Source: Escherichia phage vB_EcoP_EcoN5. Taken from it: 64,000 nt of DNA. The DNA lies in the sequence record MN715356; one strand, 5' to 3'. Below are positions 29,057-58,933 of the stretch, one piece after another (within the stretch, counting starts at the first letter, position 1; each line of letters begins with the position of its first letter). A model generated the notes under the pieces. That model was not told the DNA's origin. It searched no databases and saw nothing but the letters and a program-made list of their open reading frames with translations. A program made the position numbers and the translations under genes.

Positions 29057-29066
<10 letters not shown>
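28530..29066 (-). CDS. hypothetical protein
   Basis: 178-aa co-oriented ORF with tight spacing. Confidence 0.4.
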
Positions 29067-30552
<1,486 letters not shown>

Positions 30553-30553
<1 letters not shown>

Positions 30554-30813
30554 CACTCTATTCCACGCTCTTTCAGAGCTTCTAACAATCCATTGTGATT
30601 GGCAGCACATTCTGTGTACTGGTCCTGATACCATTCCAACGTAGTGGCTAGTGCTTTTCCTTGAGCACTCTCTAAAAAAGGTAAGTCAACCCTGCATTCA
30701 GCTTTTAGGTTTGTTGGTAAGGGCATTGATTGCCTGCTGCTGTCGATCATTGAACATGCGGATGTACTCATCACTAGCGCAGACATTATAAAAAACTGGT
30801 TTAGTTTTCTCAT
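30553..30813 (-). CDS. small lipoprotein (outer-membrane spanin-like)
   Basis: From internal ATG: signal peptide MRKLNQFFIMSALVMSTSAC with lipobox-like Cys; overlaps end of upstream TM/coiled-coil gene in another frame. Confidence 0.4.
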
Positions 30814-37814: not shown

Positions 37815-38090
37815 TTAACCTTTTGGGAATGGCATTAAAAATTCCATAGCAGATTTAATTTCATTATTGATTCGTGCATCTCGATAAGAGATAAACTTAC
37901 CTTTGCTATCACGTAACATTACATGAGTTCTAGCTGTTACGTGGGGAAGTAATGTAATACTAGTTGGGATTCTATCAATCCCTACAGAACATCTGTCAAT
38001 AGTTTTGCTTTCAGTTAACAAATAAGACCAAGTCTGCTCTGGATGGTTAGGGTATGTGTCTCGAATCTGAACCATAGCTAACTTATTCAT
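37815..38090 (-). CDS. hypothetical small protein, tandem paralog A
   Basis: Shares ...TART.V.LR...GKFISY...PFPKG with adjacent gene. Confidence 0.4.
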   Translation of the reverse strand: MNKLAMVQIRDTYPNHPEQTWSYLLTESKTIDRCSVGIDRIPTSITLLPHVTARTHVMLRDSKGKFISYRDARINNEIKSAMEFLMPFPKG

Positions 38091-38091
38091 A

Positions 38092-38349
38092 TTAAACTCC
38101 TTTAGGGAATGGGATGAGGTTTTCTACTGCAACACGGTACTCTTTCTCTACATCTTTATTCTTGTAGGAAATGAATTTACCATCAGCACCACGGAGGATT
38201 ACATTAGTACGAGCTGTTTTTGGGTTATGACCAATCTGGTTTGCAATGAGACTGACGTTGTGTTTAGTATTATGATTATTGGTGAATTTCCACTTAGCCA
38301 GACGGTTAGTCATTACATCAATGATAGTTACGGTTTTTACAATAGACAT
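38092..38349 (-). CDS. hypothetical small protein, tandem paralog B
   Basis: Shares ...TARTNVILRGADGKFISY...LIPFPKG with adjacent gene. Confidence 0.4.
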   Translation of the reverse strand: MSIVKTVTIIDVMTNRLAKWKFTNNHNTKHNVSLIANQIGHNPKTARTNVILRGADGKFISYKNKDVEKEYRVAVENLIPFPKGV

Positions 38350-38428: not shown

Positions 38429-38923
38429 TTAAAGCTCCTTTAAAGCATGGAGTATTGCTGTATGGCTCACGCCAAATAACTTACCGAGACCTCTAGAGCC
38501 ATAATCTCTAGAACCTTTTACATACATTTGTTTGATCTTTACAACATCTACAGATGATAGTTTGGTAGCTGCATTATGATCACGAGATTTTCCAACATTC
38601 AAGCCCGTGTCGAATGCATGTCTCATGTTTTCAGAAGGAGTCACCCATTCAAGATTCTCTACCCTGTTATCAGATTTAATTCCATTTATATGGTTTATCT
38701 CTGGATAGTTGTTAGGGTTTGGTATCAAATGTGTTGCTATAAGTCTGTGAGCCTTCCAATGCCTACCCTCGAAAAAGATGCCTATATAACCTTTTCGGTT
38801 TATATGACCAGCCTCTTTGACGGGATGACTCTTGTTCCACTTACGACCTTTTTCTGTAGATGAAGTAAAGAAGAGCTTTCCAGATTTTTCATCATAAGAA
38901 AGCCAACTTCTAATAGGAATCAC
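38429..38923 (-). CDS. HNH homing endonuclease
   Basis: Motif EINHINGIKSDNRVENLEWVTPSENMRH. Confidence 0.6.
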   Translation of the reverse strand: MIPIRSWLSYDEKSGKLFFTSSTEKGRKWNKSHPVKEAGHINRKGYIGIFFEGRHWKAHRLIATHLIPNPNNYPEINHINGIKSDNRVENLEWVTPSENMRHAFDTGLNVGKSRDHNAATKLSSVDVVKIKQMYVKGSRDYGSRGLGKLFGVSHTAILHALKEL

Positions 38924-41707: not shown

Positions 41708-41878
41708 CTAATCCTCTGAGTTGTGGGAACAGCAATATTCACATACTCCACAACAAGGGCAAATTTCTACACTTGGGTCGTATGCATCATCAACTGTCAT
41801 CCCACACTTAGTGCAGAACACATCATCATCATCTTCTTCCAATATTAACTCTCCAAAGTTTTCTTCAGGGCTGCCCAT
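41708..41878 (-). CDS. small Cys-rich protein (56 aa)
   Basis: Unlisted ORF with CTKCG...CPCCGVCEYCC; overlaps 3' end of ThyX-like gene; no strong RBS. Confidence 0.2.
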   Translation of the reverse strand: MGSPEENFGELILEEDDDDVFCTKCGMTVDDAYDPSVEICPCCGVCEYCCSHNSED

Positions 41879-42501
41879 GAGATTGGGTAGATCTTAGCCA
41901 TCTCTTCATCCAGAGATTGGGCAAATACTCGAACTTCATATTGAGCATGAGAGGAGAGTCGCTGACGACACAACTCAAACCAGCCATATAAAGAACCAGT
42001 CCACACCCACTCAGTGATCATTCCCTGAGGAAGAACAAATCGGGCTTGCTCTGGTGCAACGAATTCGATCAACTTGTCATATGCTGCTAGAGAAGCTTCA
42101 TATGCATCATTAATCAACATTAATGCTTCAGCTCGCTCTCCATCGATGAGTTGAACCCCTGAACCTGCATGGAGGTCCGAAGGTCTCGCAAAAATCTCTT
42201 TAGGGATGAAGACTTCAACTGCTCCATCTTTATACCGCCGGGACATTTCGTTCCACGAGAATCCAACCTGATGCTTGCCCAACTGTCTCGCAATTGCGAT
42301 AGGTGCTTTGCATCGGAAACTGACTTGCGGGTGTCGGAATGGGGTAACATGCTTCTCTCTTGCGAGGAAGTTGATGAGACGTTCATCACGTTCATTTAAA
42401 TCACCTTCACGGGTTACGCCAAAGGAAACTCGAGCTGCGTTTACTACGCTACGATCACTTCCCATAGCTTCGATTAATGTTGCTTGTAATTGTTCATTCA
42501 T
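41845..42501 (-). CDS. thyX: flavin-dependent thymidylate synthase-like protein (ThyX family, divergent signature)
   Basis: AARVSF, TPFRHP, KAPIAIARQ, NEMSRRY resemble ThyX blocks, but the expected RHR-x7-S motif reads KHQ-x8-S. Confidence 0.5.
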   Translation of the reverse strand: MNEQLQATLIEAMGSDRSVVNAARVSFGVTREGDLNERDERLINFLAREKHVTPFRHPQVSFRCKAPIAIARQLGKHQVGFSWNEMSRRYKDGAVEVFIPKEIFARPSDLHAGSGVQLIDGERAEALMLINDAYEASLAAYDKLIEFVAPEQARFVLPQGMITEWVWTGSLYGWFELCRQRLSSHAQYEVRVFAQSLDEEMAKIYPISWAALKKTLES

Positions 42502-42516
42502 CCGTGAATTTCCTTA

Positions 42517-42726
42517 TTAATATTCTTTTACATAATAAACCACTAAGGTTCCCTTCTCTGACAATGTTGATTTATGTAAGCTTACTTTACTATAAATCTT
42601 TGGAGCCATCTTAAGAGCCTTCTTAAAACGGCGAGCATCTTTACGAGTAGCAAAGTGCTCTGTAACAGGTATAGCCGGGTCTTGGTAGAGGTAATATACC
42701 ACCGTCCAATATTTTTTCATAATCAA
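42517..42726 (-). CDS. hypothetical small protein (member of 3-copy family)
   Basis: 69 aa; shares W...TRK(D/E)AR.(F/A)KK...(V/I)S(L/I)H...G..Y pattern with 44373..44582 and 44582..44791. Confidence 0.4.
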   Translation of the reverse strand: MIMKKYWTVVYYLYQDPAIPVTEHFATRKDARRFKKALKMAPKIYSKVSLHKSTLSEKGTLVVYYVKEY

Positions 42727-42995
42727 ACACCTAGGGCAGTAGTTAAGAATGCTTTCAGGTTTGCTTCAGTCTGCATACCAGAGAGGCTATAGTGTGCACC
42801 ACTATTACGGTCAGGTACAACGAAAGCAGGAATGCTTCGTACACCATACTTAATAGCTTGCTCACGACCATCGCCTTCAAGAATATTGATCTCTTCCACT
42901 TCTACATCAAACTCCTTAACAACCTTCTCAAAGGTAGGAGCCATTGCTTTACATGGAGCACACTGATTACTATAAAACTTAATTACTTTAGACAT
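42723..42995 (-). CDS. thioredoxin/glutaredoxin-like protein
   Basis: Active-site CAPC in N-terminal beta-alpha unit (KFYSNQCAPCK). Confidence 0.55.
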   Translation of the reverse strand: MSKVIKFYSNQCAPCKAMAPTFEKVVKEFDVEVEEINILEGDGREQAIKYGVRSIPAFVVPDRNSGAHYSLSGMQTEANLKAFLTTALGV

Positions 42996-43414: not shown

Positions 43415-44026
43415 TTAGTAAGACACATCACCACTTGAGTGGGACATGTTGCTCTTGACAAAGTAGCAATACTTACCAAGGCCTTCATTAATTTCTTGAA
43501 GCATACTCTGATCAACTGGATAAGTGGCTAAATCACCATCAAACTCATCCATCTTCTCAATAATACACATCAAGGTCATGCACATATCAGAGAGCATACC
43601 GTCCATGTCTAGGTCAGCATTACCCTCTGAGAACCAAGCATGGGAGAGATAGTTGGCTGCTGTAGCATCAACTTTAACACAGTGGTATCGCATACGTTCA
43701 GCAATACGATCTCCTACTTGTCGTGCGTAATCTTCCAGCTCGTCAAACATACCATGAACACCCTGGAATCCTGCACCAGAGACGTTCCAGTGGTAGTTTT
43801 TAGCTTTGATGTGCAAGAGTTCCATGTTAGCTTGTAAGCAGCTCAGGATGTGTTCTAGGCTGTTTCCACTAATCATGCCTTGCATTGTTTCAAGGCGAGA
43901 GATTGAAAGCTCAGACCGGTCTAACATATTATAGTCGGAACGACCAATCTCAGGTAAATCAAAGACATTCTTATGCATTTGGGTTTTCTCCATCAAGTTC
44001 AACTGAGTTAGCAACGTTACGTGCAA
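43415..44026 (-). CDS. Dps/ferritin-like protein
   Basis: Motif HWNVSGAGFQGVHGMFDELEDYARQVGDRIAERM resembles the Dps ferroxidase-centre helix pair. Confidence 0.5.
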   Translation of the reverse strand: MHVTLLTQLNLMEKTQMHKNVFDLPEIGRSDYNMLDRSELSISRLETMQGMISGNSLEHILSCLQANMELLHIKAKNYHWNVSGAGFQGVHGMFDELEDYARQVGDRIAERMRYHCVKVDATAANYLSHAWFSEGNADLDMDGMLSDMCMTLMCIIEKMDEFDGDLATYPVDQSMLQEINEGLGKYCYFVKSNMSHSSGDVSY

Positions 44027-44372: not shown

Positions 44373-44582
44373 TCAGTAGTAAACATTCCGAGATAGCATA
44401 CAAGTACCTTCTGAGAATTCAACCCAACGATGTATGCTAACATGTTCAACTATACCGACCAGAGCTTTCATATTCTTTTTAGCAATACGAGCCTCTTTGC
44501 GAGTATTAAACAGTTTGATATTATCTTTACCTATGTGTTGTTCATGATTCCAGACAACACGAATAGCCCACATCTTTTTCAT
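44373..44582 (-). CDS. hypothetical small protein (member of 3-copy family)
   Basis: 69 aa, paralog of 42517..42726 and 44582..44791. Confidence 0.4.
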   Translation of the reverse strand: MKKMWAIRVVWNHEQHIGKDNIKLFNTRKEARIAKKNMKALVGIVEHVSIHRWVEFSEGTCMLSRNVYY

Positions 44583-44791
44583 TAGTAGTGTACCTTTCCA
44601 CCGATATAAACACGACCAGAGGAATACTCTCTGGCCTTATGAATGCTGATGTTCTTGATCATGTCCATGTTAAACATAGACTTTTTAAAATCTCGAGCTT
44701 GTTGGCGAGTAGGCAGTGCAGTCATAGTCATACCACCTGATGCCCACTTAATCTTTGCTAACCAAAACTGTCTCATAGTGATTGGTCTCAT
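44582..44791 (-). CDS. hypothetical small protein (member of 3-copy family)
   Basis: 69 aa, tandem paralog of 44373..44582. Confidence 0.4.
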   Translation of the reverse strand: MRPITMRQFWLAKIKWASGGMTMTALPTRQQARDFKKSMFNMDMIKNISIHKAREYSSGRVYIGGKVHY

Positions 44792-45258: not shown

Positions 45259-45783
45259 CTATCTTTCATCCACATTAAAGGAGAGATGAAGTCTACTCCT
45301 CATAGACTTAGCCAAAAGCTTTGCCTCTTCAAGAGTTTTCACTCCATATACAGACTCACGTTTACCATCTTTTTGGACAGATACACAGAACGTTCCACCT
45401 TTCTCTTGGTAGACATTCTTGATTCCTAGTTTGTTATCAACCCTTGTCTTAGCATTCTGACTGTTCTCAGAGTGAGAGCACTTTCTCAGGTTAGTTTCTT
45501 CTAGATTTTCTCTATTACCGTCAGCATGATCTATTTGATATTCATCCGATAAATCCTCACCAGTATAAAGAACAAAAAGAATCCTATGATTATGGACATG
45601 AACTCCTCCTAATGGAATTTGATAATATCCATCTTTTGTGAGCTTACCAGCAGGTTTACCTACTATATCATTAGCAAACTTACTAGGCTTCCTTTTCCAA
45701 GAAAGCCCTGAAGGTGATGACATGTCTATATTAAAGAGATCAACTACCTCATCATAGCATATCAGCATGGTTTGTTCCACCAA
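45259..45783 (-). CDS. HNH homing endonuclease with AP2-like DNA-binding domain
   Basis: Motif YQIDHADGNRENLEETNLRKCSHSEN plus C-terminal YGVKTLEEAKLLAKSMR. Confidence 0.55.
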   Translation of the reverse strand: MVEQTMLICYDEVVDLFNIDMSSPSGLSWKRKPSKFANDIVGKPAGKLTKDGYYQIPLGGVHVHNHRILFVLYTGEDLSDEYQIDHADGNRENLEETNLRKCSHSENSQNAKTRVDNKLGIKNVYQEKGGTFCVSVQKDGKRESVYGVKTLEEAKLLAKSMRSRLHLSFNVDER

Positions 45784-46306
45784 AAGCTTTTGTTGGCCCT
45801 TGTTGGTTATTATATGAACCTTTCGTTGCGTAGCTGTCCTCTTCAGATGAGGAATGCTTAAAGAACTCCATTTGACCTATACGCATCCCCGGTTTAATTA
45901 GCAGAGAGTGATGTTGTAGGACATTCTTGAATTCCATAGTTAACTGACTGCCATGCCAACCGCCATCAGCATGACCAGCGTGCATGTGCTCTAAGAAGCA
46001 ACGACCGACAGTAGATCGTAGCATGAAGTCACAGCTAATGTTATCTGGAAGATTGAATGTCTCCACTGTATGAGCTAAGAAGCATTCACCCGGTTTGATC
46101 ACCAACCCTTCCTCTGGAATCATAACCTCATTGAAGTTAGGGGATTCTTTAGCAGAGATATCAACAACCCCATTAGCTGCACCTTCCATCAGAACACGAT
46201 CTCCAATACGAACGTCAATGCTGGAGGAATTAACAGCTGAGTGTGGTGCATCAATAACACCATCATCAATTAATTTATGTAACTCTGGGCTTCCTAGTAA
46301 ACTCAT
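45752..46306 (-). CDS. dcd: dCTP deaminase (Dcd/dUTPase-fold)
   Basis: Motif HAGHADGGWHGSQLTMEFKN resembles the Dcd active-site block. Confidence 0.55.
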   Translation of the reverse strand: MSLLGSPELHKLIDDGVIDAPHSAVNSSSIDVRIGDRVLMEGAANGVVDISAKESPNFNEVMIPEEGLVIKPGECFLAHTVETFNLPDNISCDFMLRSTVGRCFLEHMHAGHADGGWHGSQLTMEFKNVLQHHSLLIKPGMRIGQMEFFKHSSSEEDSYATKGSYNNQQGPTKAFGGTNHADML

Positions 46307-46315
46307 TCTTATTCC

Positions 46316-47677
46316 TTAGTTATTTGTTTCCATGTCAAAAGAGATTCCACGACCCGCTTCATCGGCAAACCGAACTGTACGGGTTTGAGGTTCTAATACT
46401 TCAGGGTTGTTAGCAACAAAGCGATCAGCGAGACTGCGACTGACGGTCTCAGCAAGTTCCTCATGAGAAGGAATATCAAGACTGCCTACCACATCTTGGG
46501 TCACGCCTTCATCAGTCCACACAGCTCTAACAGGTGCGTTGATATCACCAGCAGCAAAACCCTGACCAGAGAACTGGTGACGGCTAACAGTCAAACCATT
46601 TGGTCGACCATTAGAACGTCTAGACAACCACTGCTCAAACGAATCGCTTGTGATACCAAGGGCTTCTTCAAAAGATGTTCTACGAGTAGGGCTTACTCTT
46701 CGTAACTCTTGTGCTCGACGCATTGCAGGGGCTACAAACACCCCTTCAATTGCATTGTGCCGATTAGGTTCATCTTCTCGACCAAGCAGATCACCGCCTG
46801 TGTTAGTCGTTAAATTTGTTAACCCTTCAGACCAATACGCATAAATTTGACCAGACCCGTGAACGCTTGACATTAACAGAATCTCTTCATAAGGGATTCC
46901 AAAGAATAGACTCATGTCTCGGTTAACACAATATTGAGCACTTGTCGTATCCTCAATAAGAGCAACCTGACCTCGTTCGTTGACCAGTTGGCTAACTGGT
47001 TGAGGTGTGGGAAGATATCGAGTTTGGGCCATGTATTGATGTGCAGCTGCTGGAGAGGAAAATCTCAACACTTGCGAGTTAGGCCACTTCTTGTGAACAT
47101 ATCTGATTTCACGACTAGAAACAACCACTGGACAAGGGGCGGTCATAGCCAAGTATCCGTGAGAAGTCATGAATAAGTTGTCAAGAGTCATCGCACCACG
47201 GCACATCATAGGAAAATTATCCAATACCTCTTCAATAGAAGTAGGATAATTAAACATGAATTGGATACGAACCCCATTCCACTGAAACTCAATAATATCA
47301 GTGAACGTTAATTGAGAACTCCCAGCATAGGATTCGTTTGTAGCTTCAGCAAGAAGGGATGCATATTCAATATCTTGTGACTCTAGCCATTCCTTCACAT
47401 TACTTTCAATCTCTCTTCCAAGAGCTTGCCAACGATCAGTTGGGACGAAAGTATTTTGAGTTCTTGGTGTTTGTCCTCTGACAATAAAGATATCAATGTC
47501 ATGTGGAGCCATGTTATTAAGTACAGCATCTCGAACAGCCCCACCAGTAATGATGGGACAGATACCGTCTGGAACCAAGTTGTTATTAATCAACTGTTCA
47601 ATGAAGTTACGACCAACAGTGATATCAGGTTGTTGAGCAACCTTATCTTCAATTTGGTTAATCGGGATAACAATCAT
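46316..47677 (-). CDS. nucleotidyltransferase, tRNA CCA-adding/poly(A) polymerase head-domain family
   Basis: Motif ITGGAVRDAVL...HDIDIFIV equals the GGxVRD...DxD signature; start set to second ATG to avoid overlap (longer form to 47734 possible). Confidence 0.5.
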   Translation of the reverse strand: MIVIPINQIEDKVAQQPDITVGRNFIEQLINNNLVPDGICPIITGGAVRDAVLNNMAPHDIDIFIVRGQTPRTQNTFVPTDRWQALGREIESNVKEWLESQDIEYASLLAEATNESYAGSSQLTFTDIIEFQWNGVRIQFMFNYPTSIEEVLDNFPMMCRGAMTLDNLFMTSHGYLAMTAPCPVVVSSREIRYVHKKWPNSQVLRFSSPAAAHQYMAQTRYLPTPQPVSQLVNERGQVALIEDTTSAQYCVNRDMSLFFGIPYEEILLMSSVHGSGQIYAYWSEGLTNLTTNTGGDLLGREDEPNRHNAIEGVFVAPAMRRAQELRRVSPTRRTSFEEALGITSDSFEQWLSRRSNGRPNGLTVSRHQFSGQGFAAGDINAPVRAVWTDEGVTQDVVGSLDIPSHEELAETVSRSLADRFVANNPEVLEPQTRTVRFADEAGRGISFDMETNN

Positions 47678-47678
47678 T

Positions 47679-48233
47679 TTACATTTTCCAATATAATGAA
47701 GGTGGGTCGTAAGGGTCGAATCCTGTGAGTTCACACAAGAAAAGATAAACCTTAACGGTTAAGTTAACGTCCTGTTCACAATAAGTAAACATATCTTCAG
47801 TGAAAGCATCCCATGCTTCCTCTTGCTCACCGTAATCTCCTTTAAGTTCCTCTAAGAACTCACCCCATTGCTTCAAACCATGACCTCTTGGGCCATGTCT
47901 AGGGTCGCCTTTCGGATACTCAGGACTGTCACCAATACGGTCAGGTTTAAGATATCGACTAAGACATAAAGTGTCAAAGACATTAAAATGATATTTAATC
48001 AAAGAAGGATACATCTTCTTCAGAGCAGGCAAGTCGAAGTCAATAATATTATGACCCACTAGTACATCTGCTTCTGTAAGTTTACGAATCCCGTCTTCAA
48101 TTTGGTGAGGCCGATAGCCCCACCTTTCACCAGTTTCAACATCGAAGATGTAAATACACCACACTTTAGTTATGTCATCGTACAGTGCATTACTTTCGAT
48201 ATCAAATGCAAACACTTTCTTTTTCTTTACCAC
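47679..48233 (-). CDS. 3'-5' proofreading exonuclease (DnaQ-like, T7 DNA polymerase N-terminal-domain-like), separate gene
   Basis: Exo [10 protein letters not shown], Exo [14 protein letters not shown], Exo III YCEQDV; 184-aa stand-alone ORF. Confidence 0.6.
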
Positions 48234-57969: not shown

Positions 57970-58933
57970 TGTAATACTCCACTAGTTCAGAAAAGAGAGA
58001 TGAGATTGTGTTACCAACTTCTTCAGTAGTAAGACCAGAGTTTGGTCCAGTACGTTGAATCAGTCGGGCTGTAAAGTTTTGGACTGTAATGTTTTCCAAC
58101 TTATTGTCTATTGCTTCACGTTTGTGACCATGACAGTTGGACCAGAGTCTTAACCACTCTGACATTGTTTCATACTCGTCCGGGTCTTGATCTTTAGCAC
58201 GAGCAAATCTTCGTAAGGCATCTTGGTTATGGTTGCGAACATAACCGTCCTTGTTGTCACCAACACCGAAGGGGTTTTGAACCCATACCTGCTTCGTGTA
58301 TTCATCAGAGTCTACAACCAAAGGAAGGAATGCTGCTGCTGACATATTGTTATTAACAACAATAGAGGTGCTCTCGCTACTCCCATTGACTCTTCCTCGT
58401 TGAGACCATCCACCGAAGAAGTCACGACCCAACCCAGCTAACACTAGAGCGATGCCGATGCGTTTACGCTTCAGCCACTCTTCCCTGTCTTCAATTCCTT
58501 CTGCTAGGAAATCCATTCCACGATACTGCCCTTCCAGGATGCTACGGAAGAGCATAAGTCCTGTGAAGATTTGATCTGCTGGATGCTCACGGAGGTTGAC
58601 AGCTACACTATTCGCTGAAGTGATTGTAAATACATCACGATAGCAAGACATAGAGTTCATAATATCTGCTGTTTCAACCAAGTTCTTTTCAATTTCAGAT
58701 GCAACATGACCATGAAAAGAGTGAGTCCAGTAATTCAACATCTCCAATTGCAAGTTGATATCACGGTTGAAGCGTCTATAACGCCCATCTTCAGTGATAA
58801 CTTCGCCATCAATATCATTTACGCATTGGCCTTGCATGTAGTTGTGAATACCGAAGCACCCACGACCTAAGAACTTCTGTTCCCCTAAATCCTGTTGAAG
58901 ATTCAGAGGTACGATCGTTGTGGAGATTGACAT
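57962..58933 (-). CDS. hypothetical protein
   Basis: 323-aa co-oriented ORF. Confidence 0.4.
   Translation of the reverse strand: MSISTTIVPLNLQQDLGEQKFLGRGCFGIHNYMQGQCVNDIDGEVITEDGRYRRFNRDINLQLEMLNYWTHSFHGHVASEIEKNLVETADIMNSMSCYRDVFTITSANSVAVNLREHPADQIFTGLMLFRSILEGQYRGMDFLAEGIEDREEWLKRKRIGIALVLAGLGRDFFGGWSQRGRVNGSSESTSIVVNNNMSAAAFLPLVVDSDEYTKQVWVQNPFGVGDNKDGYVRNHNQDALRRFARAKDQDPDEYETMSEWLRLWSNCHGHKREAIDNKLENITVQNFTARLIQRTGPNSGLTTEEVGNTISSLFSELVEYYND

Follow-up and report, generated by a model that had tools for sequence, protein, structure and literature searches.

The window, by which we mean the whole stretch of 64,000 nucleotides analyzed, comes from the genome of a Kuravirus (phiEco32-like phage), Escherichia phage vB_EcoP_EcoN5 (sequence record MN715356). 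The 5.5 kb around its thyX gene share 91-95% identity with Escherichia phages ES17, SR02, 172-1, NJ01 and about 90 others, and dozens of Kuravirus records already list the equivalent gene as thymidylate synthase ThyX. A placement among N4-like phages was dropped in favour of Kuravirus: RefSeq lists ES17 under Gordonclarkvirinae, genus Kuravirus, which are phiEco32-like podoviruses with prolate heads. The genes and signals around thyX are the following.

41845..42501, minus strand: thyX coding sequence, 218 amino acids, of the KHQ (“class B”) type (ORF list, Pfam, PHROG, NCBIfam, AF2/Foldseek)
42510..42515, minus strand: ribosome-binding site AAGGAA, read from the sequence, 8 nt 5’ of the ATG at 42501
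42723..42995, minus strand: thioredoxin-like protein with a CAPC motif (translation; annotated as thioredoxin in ES17, SR02 and others)
45752..46306, minus strand: dCTP deaminase (TIGR02274 equivalog; annotated as such in ES17 and other Kuravirus records)

The surroundings of thyX consist of phage replication and nucleotide metabolism genes. The window also encodes a split T7-like DNA polymerase, a primase-helicase and a DUF3310 protein, the last called dNMP kinase in the ES17 record. The dCTP deaminase gene lies 3.2 kb upstream of thyX, and its product scores 100.3 bits against the TIGR02274 equivalog model (cut-off 92.8), confirming an assignment made in a preliminary description of this DNA. 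The HAD nucleotidase that the same description had placed nearby was not found: the HAD domain is absent from the Pfam results for the 20 ORFs around thyX, and no reading frame of at least 100 amino acids in the window matches a strict pattern of the DxDx[TV] type. The thioredoxin-like gene is separated from thyX by one small ORF. The G+C content of the window is 42.3%; that of E. coli is about 51%.

Family, fold and active-site residues of the phage protein

The product of ORF 41845-42501 matches the ThyX family over its full length and above curated cut-offs: it hits Pfam PF02511 (Thy1) with an E-value of 6.4e-44 and 150.5 bits (cut-off 24.8; residues 8-206 against positions 1-190 of the 191 in the profile), the NCBIfam equivalog TIGR02170 (thyX) with 129.2 bits (cut-off 87.9), and PHROG 85 (“thymidylate synthase”) at 4.6e-63. 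This match is far above chance. Among proteins of solved structure, the best sequence match is Thermus thermophilus ThyX (6J61; E-value 3.2e-31, residues 8-215), and Thermotoga maritima ThyX (1KQ4) is matched at 6e-25. An AF2 monomer model built from 87 sequences (mean pLDDT 95.8, pTM 0.89) has the ThyX fold: each of the 50 best Foldseek matches in the PDB is a ThyX, and the TM-score to the T. maritima enzyme is about 0.82 (0.79-0.83). Pfam reports Thy1 alone and all structural matches are ThyX, with no sign of a ThyA fold or domain; likewise, the protein is not closest to PolB, nor does its gene lie in a nucleoside-antibiotic cluster.

Four ThyX blocks can be read in the protein: AARVSF (residues 22-27), TPFRHP (53-58), KAPIAIARQ (65-73) and KHQVGFSWNEMSRRY (76-90). 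The preliminary description had named the first three together with NEMSRRY, and all are present in the translation. In the HMMER alignment, the T. maritima segment RHRIA-SYNELSGRY pairs with the last of these blocks, giving the correspondences R78 to K76, H79 to H77, R80 to Q78, S88 to S87, G89 to R88, R90 to R89 and Y91 to Y90. The phage protein therefore reads KHQ-x8-S where the canonical enzymes read RHR-x7-S, with one added residue ahead of the serine. The literal motif is absent and no RHR occurs elsewhere in the 218 residues, so that KHQ does stand in place of RHR, as first proposed by inspection. RHR-x7-S as the “ThyX motif” reportedly dates from Myllykallio 2002. The codons of TPFRHP, KHQ, R154 and R181 were checked against the DNA, and the residues of interest are encoded as follows (the representatives are those described in the next section).

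42328..42345, minus strand: TPFRHP block, with R56 at the position of T. maritima E58 (codons, alignment)
42268-42276, minus strand: KHQ codons AAG CAT CAG (checked on the DNA)
42232..42276, minus strand: whole motif block, from K76-H77-Q78 to S87-R88-R89-Y90 (alignment to T. maritima R78 to Y91)
42040..42042, minus strand: codon of R154, equivalent to T. maritima R147 (codon check, alignment); invariant across both classes and in 133/133 representatives
41959..41961, minus strand: codon of R181, equivalent to the dUMP contact R174 of T. maritima (codon check, alignment); invariant in 133/133 representatives

Residues identical in the phage protein and in both of the ThyX classes defined below are, in T. 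maritima numbering, S30, H53, Q75, N85, E86, S88, R90, Y91, E144, R147, R174, Q180 and E182. The remainder of the extended motif and of the dUMP site (H53, Q75, E86, S88, R90, Y91, R147, R174) is thus fully retained, and it hardly varies in the 133 representatives; H53 corresponds to H51 of the phage protein, slightly upstream of TPFRHP. Among the canonical contacts to the phosphates and ribityl of FAD, the equivalents of S30 and H79 are kept, R78, R80 and R165 are replaced by K, Q and Y, and R88 and R56 are gained. Other differences from T. maritima are E58 to R, Y84 to W, G89 to R and N163 to S.

The preliminary description called RHR substrate-binding, which is correct in part. The first arginine does contact dUMP (PMC6514825), and hydrogen bonds to dUMP are listed for R78, R80, S88 and R90 (PMC3498832); the motif as a whole, however, mainly binds the phosphates and ribityl of FAD, and the first arginine alone also touches the isoalloxazine ring (PMC6514825). 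The R165 equivalent in T. maritima and Helicobacter pylori ThyX also hydrogen-bonds the FAD phosphates and ribityl (PMC6514825). Residue 89 can also place its side chain in the pocket for the dUMP phosphate, as Q89 of PBCV-1 ThyX does (PMC3498832).

Two classes of ThyX in phages and bacteria

The KHQ triad is widespread among relatives of the phage protein. Of the best 120 homologues in public genomes and metagenomes, all with at least 54% identity, 119 have it and the remaining one has KSQ; their sources include Kuravirus-like phages, Salmonella phage SeKF_80, Escherichia phage Ecp_YSF and Yersinia phage PYps23T. About 105 phage records carry a copy of thyX at 60% identity or more. A HMMER search of 1.84 billion cluster representatives returned 6,961 relatives at E ≤0.001, and residues were counted in 133 aligned sequences from the best 150 of them. 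In these representatives the triad is KHQ in 67, KHK in 13 and RHT in 9, many other variants occur, and RHR appears once, in a Petrotogaceae enzyme (P0263). Residues S87, R89, Y90, R154 and R181 (T. maritima S88, R90, Y91, R147 and R174) are kept in 131-133 of the 133. The triad is therefore the variable part of the site in the KHQ wing of the family, and the dUMP-binding and catalytic residues its constant part.

We aligned the phage protein with the T. maritima and T. thermophilus enzymes, ten phage ThyX from INPHARED and chromosomal bacterial genes. Two classes can be distinguished, which differ at the following positions (T. maritima numbering).

Position 58: class A, E; class B, non-acidic (R, A, G, C, N)
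Position 78: class A, R; class B, K
Position 79: class A, H; class B, H or Y
Position 80: class A, R; class B, Q, K, E, I, V or A
Position 84: class A, non-Trp; class B, W
Position 89: class A, G or Q; class B, R
Position 165: class A, R or H; class B, non-basic

The change of motif covaries with four or five pocket positions, namely E58 (R56 in the phage protein, a position that follows the RHR/KHQ state), Y84, R165 and usually G89 to R; the extra loop residue is also usual in class B. Class A comprises T. maritima, T. thermophilus and phages of Mycobacterium, Gordonia, Streptomyces, Synechococcus and Pseudomonas. Class B comprises our query, phages of Vibrio, Roseobacter, Rheinheimera and Bacillus, a second group of Streptomyces phages, and the bacterial genes, so that five of the ten sampled phage groups belong to it. 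There are exceptions: the Petrotogaceae enzyme has both RHR and R89, and in the Rheinheimera phage E stands at the W84 position. A strict association of SRRY with the loss of RHR was rejected, since the same Petrotogaceae enzyme has RHR with SRRY. Of 56 columns that are strongly conserved in class B, the phage protein follows the consensus in 52. In the other four it has three substitutions (R to F104, K to H111, Q to A112), all within the flexible loop that follows the motif, and a deletion of one residue directly after residue 147.

All matched PDB ThyX chains with a readable motif (T. maritima, T. thermophilus, PBCV-1, PolB) are class A, with E58 and RHR. No biochemically or structurally studied class-B or KHQ ThyX was found in the accessible literature or among the PDB matches, and the text of the paper on Asgard ThyX gives no motif. 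Since KHQ is common to a very large branch of the family, it marks that branch, rather than a new function or a peculiarity of this phage; the phage gene is in all likelihood an ordinary representative of a large uncharacterized class of ThyX to which the textbook RHR does not apply.

A profile built from a 23-sequence alignment was scanned against one genome per prokaryotic species, and 280 loci encoding relatives were found, several of them clearly chromosomal and vertically inherited. In two Spirochaetia genomes (a 1.79-Mb chromosome and a second Spirochaetaceae) a KHQ gene with 47% identity to the query lies in a shared gene order, flanked on one side by genes for dihydroorotate dehydrogenase, OMP decarboxylase/OPRTase and aspartate carbamoyltransferase; a homologue search started from this gene returned metagenomic proteins, many of them encoded on contigs of about 43 kb, and no cultured organism. 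In five genomes of SAR202 Chloroflexota the KHQ-type gene is linked to 2-oxoacid dehydrogenase E1b/E2, and in Nitrospinaceae and Poribacteria it stands amid housekeeping genes. Eight Fusibacter/Acidaminobacteraceae genomes encode a K-Y-I variant with a longer loop, in conserved synteny (YceD, acetate kinase, HIGH nucleotidyltransferase, ThyX); in the Fusibacter genomes ThyX is 78-92% conserved, versus 45-77% for the neighbouring gene. The KY-type gene of Oceanobacillus comes after a dUTPase-family gene, and one relative, in which the motif reads RHT, forms a fusion with a dNMP kinase. Some relatives carry inteins, which split the motif loop precisely (KHQxGF / intein / SWNExSRRY); as a rule, inteins are inserted at conserved positions in important proteins. 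A non-RHR relative first taken as cellular (P0153) was dropped because it lies in a giant-virus-like region of a 559-kb contig, and two loci from archaeal MAGs (L039 and L051) were set aside because they look viral. To judge from their neighbours, the bacterial class-B genes seem to be in contexts that fit a working thymidylate synthase.

The canonical FAD/phosphate pocket has three of its basic residues replaced, which could also be read as decay, the protein then being a non-catalytic relic of ThyX that no longer binds its cofactor. We regard this as extremely improbable. The ORF is intact and has a good ribosome-binding site, the motif region is nearly invariant over hundreds of divergent homologues, the gene is retained in the many phage records counted above, and the Fusibacter ThyX is better conserved than its neighbour; moreover, the substitutions covary in an ordered manner, a pattern that decay would not give.

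Predicted reaction and alternative substrates

The phage gene very likely encodes a functional flavin-dependent thymidylate synthase (ThyX, also FDTS) of this Kuravirus. From the family membership, fold, residue conservation, covariation and genomic contexts established directly here, we infer the activity, the cofactor, the tetrameric state and the pathway role of the enzyme. By analogy with T. maritima ThyX, it would form a homotetramer with flavin at the subunit interfaces. NADPH would reduce the flavin, the methylene of CH2H4folate would pass via flavin N5 to C5 of dUMP, and a hydride from the reduced flavin would then yield dTMP and H4folate. The divergent thymidylate synthase that the preliminary description had offered as one of two options is thus supported: the equivalog model is passed, the fold is that of ThyX, the dUMP-binding and catalytic residues are kept, and KHQ relatives occur as syntenic housekeeping genes.

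The genomic context is that of dTMP synthesis, both in the window (dCTP deaminase) and around the class-B orthologues, including the fusion to a dNMP kinase. The dCTP deaminase would be the likely upstream source of the deoxyuridine nucleotide used by ThyX. The simplest pathway would run from dCTP to dUTP or dUMP, then to dTMP and dTTP, with a host dUTPase being needed if the deaminase is monofunctional. Together, the two phage enzymes may enlarge the dT share of the host pool at the expense of dC, providing more dT for a genome richer in A+T.

Within this synthase, the cofactor/phosphate pocket shared by class B would be rebuilt with respect to T. maritima, through R78 to K, R80 to Q, E58 to a non-acidic residue (R here), Y84 to W, R165 to a non-basic residue (Y here), G89 to R, and one added residue in the loop. 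Positive charge would have moved inside the pocket, R80, R165 and E58 being lost and R89 gained, with the net charge roughly kept; phosphate binding has plausibly passed to R88 of the phage protein, which lies at position 89 of T. maritima. The class-B site thus seems to be remodelled, not abolished. Cofactor affinity or identity could differ, as two or three of the arginines reported to contact the FAD phosphates or dUMP (R78, R80, R165) are replaced. A less likely reading is that class-B enzymes use flavin unlike all characterized ThyX, their flavin being, for instance, loosely held or other than FAD.

The altered phosphate arginines could instead reflect a change of substrate, in which case the enzyme would methylate a nucleotide other than dUMP: UMP, like PolB, or for instance dCMP, or a nucleotide with two or three phosphates. 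R78 and R80, both altered in the phage protein, are indeed listed as hydrogen-bonding partners of dUMP (PMC3498832), and PolB (PDB 4P5A), matched by the phage protein at 2.4e-16, is a ThyX homologue that acts on another substrate. PolB, however, keeps both E and RHR, so a substrate change does not need the loss of RHR, and the loss of RHR does not imply a substrate change. The match to PolB is also far weaker than that to true ThyX (2.4e-16 versus 3e-31), the contacts to the base and phosphate of dUMP (equivalents of R174, R147, S88 and R90) are invariant, and the gene contexts point to dTMP synthesis (the dCTP deaminase of the phage, the dUTPase-family gene of Oceanobacillus, the pyrimidine-biosynthesis genes of Spirochaetia). 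We find another substrate highly improbable for these reasons.

The other option in the preliminary description was a ThyX-fold enzyme acting on a different pyrimidine, with a role in making a modified nucleotide. Such an enzyme could yield, instead of dTMP or alongside it, a modified deoxyuridylate, for instance 5-hydroxymethyl-dUMP by trapping of the exocyclic methylene with water, and the resulting DNA modification would explain the restriction resistance of these phages: Gordonclarkvirinae are described as “remarkably resistant” to the restriction-modification systems tested, with no modification pathway known (BASEL II, PMC11990801). A literature search on modified DNA and restriction digests of phiEco32-like phages yielded this phenotype alone. 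The window has as many EcoRI (18) and EcoRV (37) sites as expected, so that scarcity of sites does not explain resistance to these two enzymes. Avoidance of palindromes is graded by G+C, with observed/expected ratios of 0.97, 0.88, 0.54 and 0.21 for palindromes with 0, 2, 4 and 6 G/C positions. ThyX chemistry includes an exocyclic methylene intermediate (PMC8989533), and the changes particular to the query lineage (F104, H111, A112) fall in the flexible loop past the motif.

Several observations argue against such a modification. KHQ and its covarying residues are also found in chromosomal housekeeping ThyX, one set of them next to pyrimidine-biosynthesis genes; the motif is therefore uninformative on this phage in particular. 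The dUMP-binding residues of the phage protein are all intact, and no 5-hmdU kinase, glycosyltransferase or other known thymidine-hypermodification domain was found in the 20 neighbouring ORFs scanned. The strong avoidance of palindromes extends to some that contain T and are missing from the window (CTGCAG, 0 versus 14.4 expected; GAGCTC, 0 versus 11.8; GGTACC, 0 versus 6.6), which suggests that sites with thymidine were exposed to restriction in the past. With KHQ being a trait of the branch, the HAD nucleotidase not found and the premise on RHR only partly right, the proposal gains no positive support, and we consider it improbable; if true, this would be the first pyrimidine hydroxymethylase of ThyX type, those known being of ThyA type.

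BASEL II speculates on yet another DNA chemistry, in which dCTP deaminase and a neighbouring nucleotidyltransferase lead to deoxyuracil DNA; thymidylate synthase is not mentioned there (PMC11990801). An intact and conserved ThyX argues against this proposal, since a phage replacing T with U is not expected to make dTMP. The presence of ThyX together with dCTP deaminase thus constrains ideas on Kuravirus DNA. The unusual motif itself gives no pointer to a new base in Kuravirus, and in this respect our result mostly clarifies, rather than revealing a new kind of system.

Implications and comparison with known systems

The “universal” RHR-x7-S motif is not universal, and defines the canonical wing of ThyX alone. 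A very large wing carries K-[H/Y/S]-x together with the covarying changes, in phages as well as in chromosomal genes of several bacterial phyla. Work on ThyX mechanism and inhibitors has been built wholly on the RHR class, and much could be learned from the structure of a class-B enzyme in complex with flavin and dUMP. An earlier study used the RHRX7S motif and discarded sequences with more than two residues dissimilar from it (PMC2826268); filters of this kind may have dropped many class-B sequences from evolutionary studies.

The kind of function that the preliminary description had in mind is that of the T4 dCMP hydroxymethylase and of the dUMP hydroxymethylases of 5-hmdU phages. These enzymes belong to the unrelated ThyA family (PMC8989533), whereas the phage protein matches Thy1/ThyX alone in Pfam. 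PolB of polyoxin biosynthesis (4P5A) shares the ThyX fold and methylates UMP at C5, a precedent for another substrate; it differs from the phage protein in retaining E and RHR and in its context, PolB being a member of an antibiotic gene cluster, of a kind not seen around the phage thyX. PBCV-1 A674R ThyX (2CFA, 4FZB), a characterized enzyme, is similarly encoded by a virus, serves a viral genome richer in A+T and belongs to the same fold family, but it has the canonical E, RHR and SQRY and is a distant sequence match to the phage protein (2.5e-7). T. thermophilus ThyX (6J61), unlike the phage protein, keeps E, RHR and SGRY and carries an extra C-terminal domain. T. maritima ThyX (TM0449; 1O26, 8REO) has the same fold (TM-score 0.82), about 32-34% identity and the same length class; the difference between the two lies in its RHR-x7-S, which is KHQ-x8-S in the phage protein, and in the cofactor/phosphate pocket, which appears rebuilt in the phage enzyme.

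Palindromes, restriction sites and a candidate modification gene

Across the window (1-64000), avoidance of six-base palindromes scales with their G+C content: the observed/expected ratio falls from 0.97 for palindromes without G/C positions to 0.88, 0.54 and 0.21 for those with two, four and six, respectively. PstI, SacI and KpnI sites were absent from the whole window, against 7-14 expected. GATC was found 131 times versus 296 expected, and CCWGG occurred only seven times. EcoRI (n=18) and EcoRV (n=37) sites, in contrast, matched expectation, despite the restriction resistance reported for Gordonclarkvirinae phages (PMC11990801). The same source (BASEL II) describes as a possible DNA-modification factor a conserved gene whose equivalent here lies between the dCTP deaminase and DNA polymerase exonuclease genes:

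46316-47734, minus strand: 472-aa protein with a weak match to the head domain of poly(A)-polymerase/CCA-type nucleotidyltransferases (E 9e-4)

ThyX relatives in other genomes

Four relatives (P0122, P0136, P0187 and P0201) carry intein-type insertions placed exactly inside the ThyX motif loop, with junctions of the form ...KHQSGF / CLTGDT...VVHN / SWNERSMRY; the insertions of P0122, P0136 and P0187 contain HNH endonucleases. We also identified a further subclass that lacks even the central His, comprising loci L056-L084, L085 (Streptomyces phage Genie2) and L091 (Bacillus phage Curly). Its motif reads ARQWWK-Y-I/V, followed by a loop insertion of 5-7 residues and then WNESSRRY. This subclass is syntenic in Fusibacter, and is found also in Paenibacillus, Oceanobacillus and related genera.

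Locus L005 is a Kuravirus-like ThyX fragment with 68% identity, KHQ and TPFRH, on a 526-bp scaffold (scaffold796) of Herbiconiux daphne. The assembly is actinobacterial, and the scaffold is probably phage contamination. Locus L002 (GCA_013572995.1) encodes a ThyX with an RHT motif on a 559-kb contig, next to DUF5760, glycosyltransferase 25, VWA and AAA genes, a region that looks like part of a giant virus.

Other genes of the window

Three further proteins are encoded among the early and replication genes:

29057-29449, minus strand: SLOG/YAcAr-family protein
30113-30634, minus strand: Macro-domain protein
43415-44026, minus strand: ferritin/Dps-like protein

The last is labelled "integrase" in the annotated record of the related Kuravirus ES17, which looks like a misannotation.

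Local alignment revealed two sets of small paralogous ORFs:

42517-42726, 44373-44582 and 44582-44791, all minus strand: three 69-aa ORFs
37815-38090 and 38092-38349, minus strand: two adjacent ORFs of 91 and 85 aa

The trio aligned with z = 13-14 in two pairs and 5 in the third, and one of its members lies directly upstream of thyX. The adjacent pair, whose paralogy is clear (z = 21), has in common a C-terminal ...GKFISY...PFPKG motif.

Genes of peptide-ligase type are clustered in 50237-58933 (minus strand):

50237-50656, minus strand: AIG2-like gamma-glutamyl cyclotransferase
51680-52882, minus strand: protein with a weak match to ATP-grasp
53326-55017, minus strand: class-II glutamine amidotransferase-like protein
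55436-56539, minus strand: Amidoligase_2
57163-57969, minus strand: phiEco32-type COOH-NH2 ligase

HNH-type homing-endonuclease-like ORFs

Three such ORFs were identified, the first two from their translation and the ES17 annotation:

38429-38923, minus strand: HNH-type homing-endonuclease-like ORF
45259-45783, minus strand: HNH-type homing-endonuclease-like ORF, overlapping the dCTP deaminase gene (3' end)
50646-51182, minus strand: HNH-type homing-endonuclease-like ORF, with NUMOD4 and HNH_3 matches

In ES17 an HNH gene directly adjoins thyX, whereas the window has none at that position.
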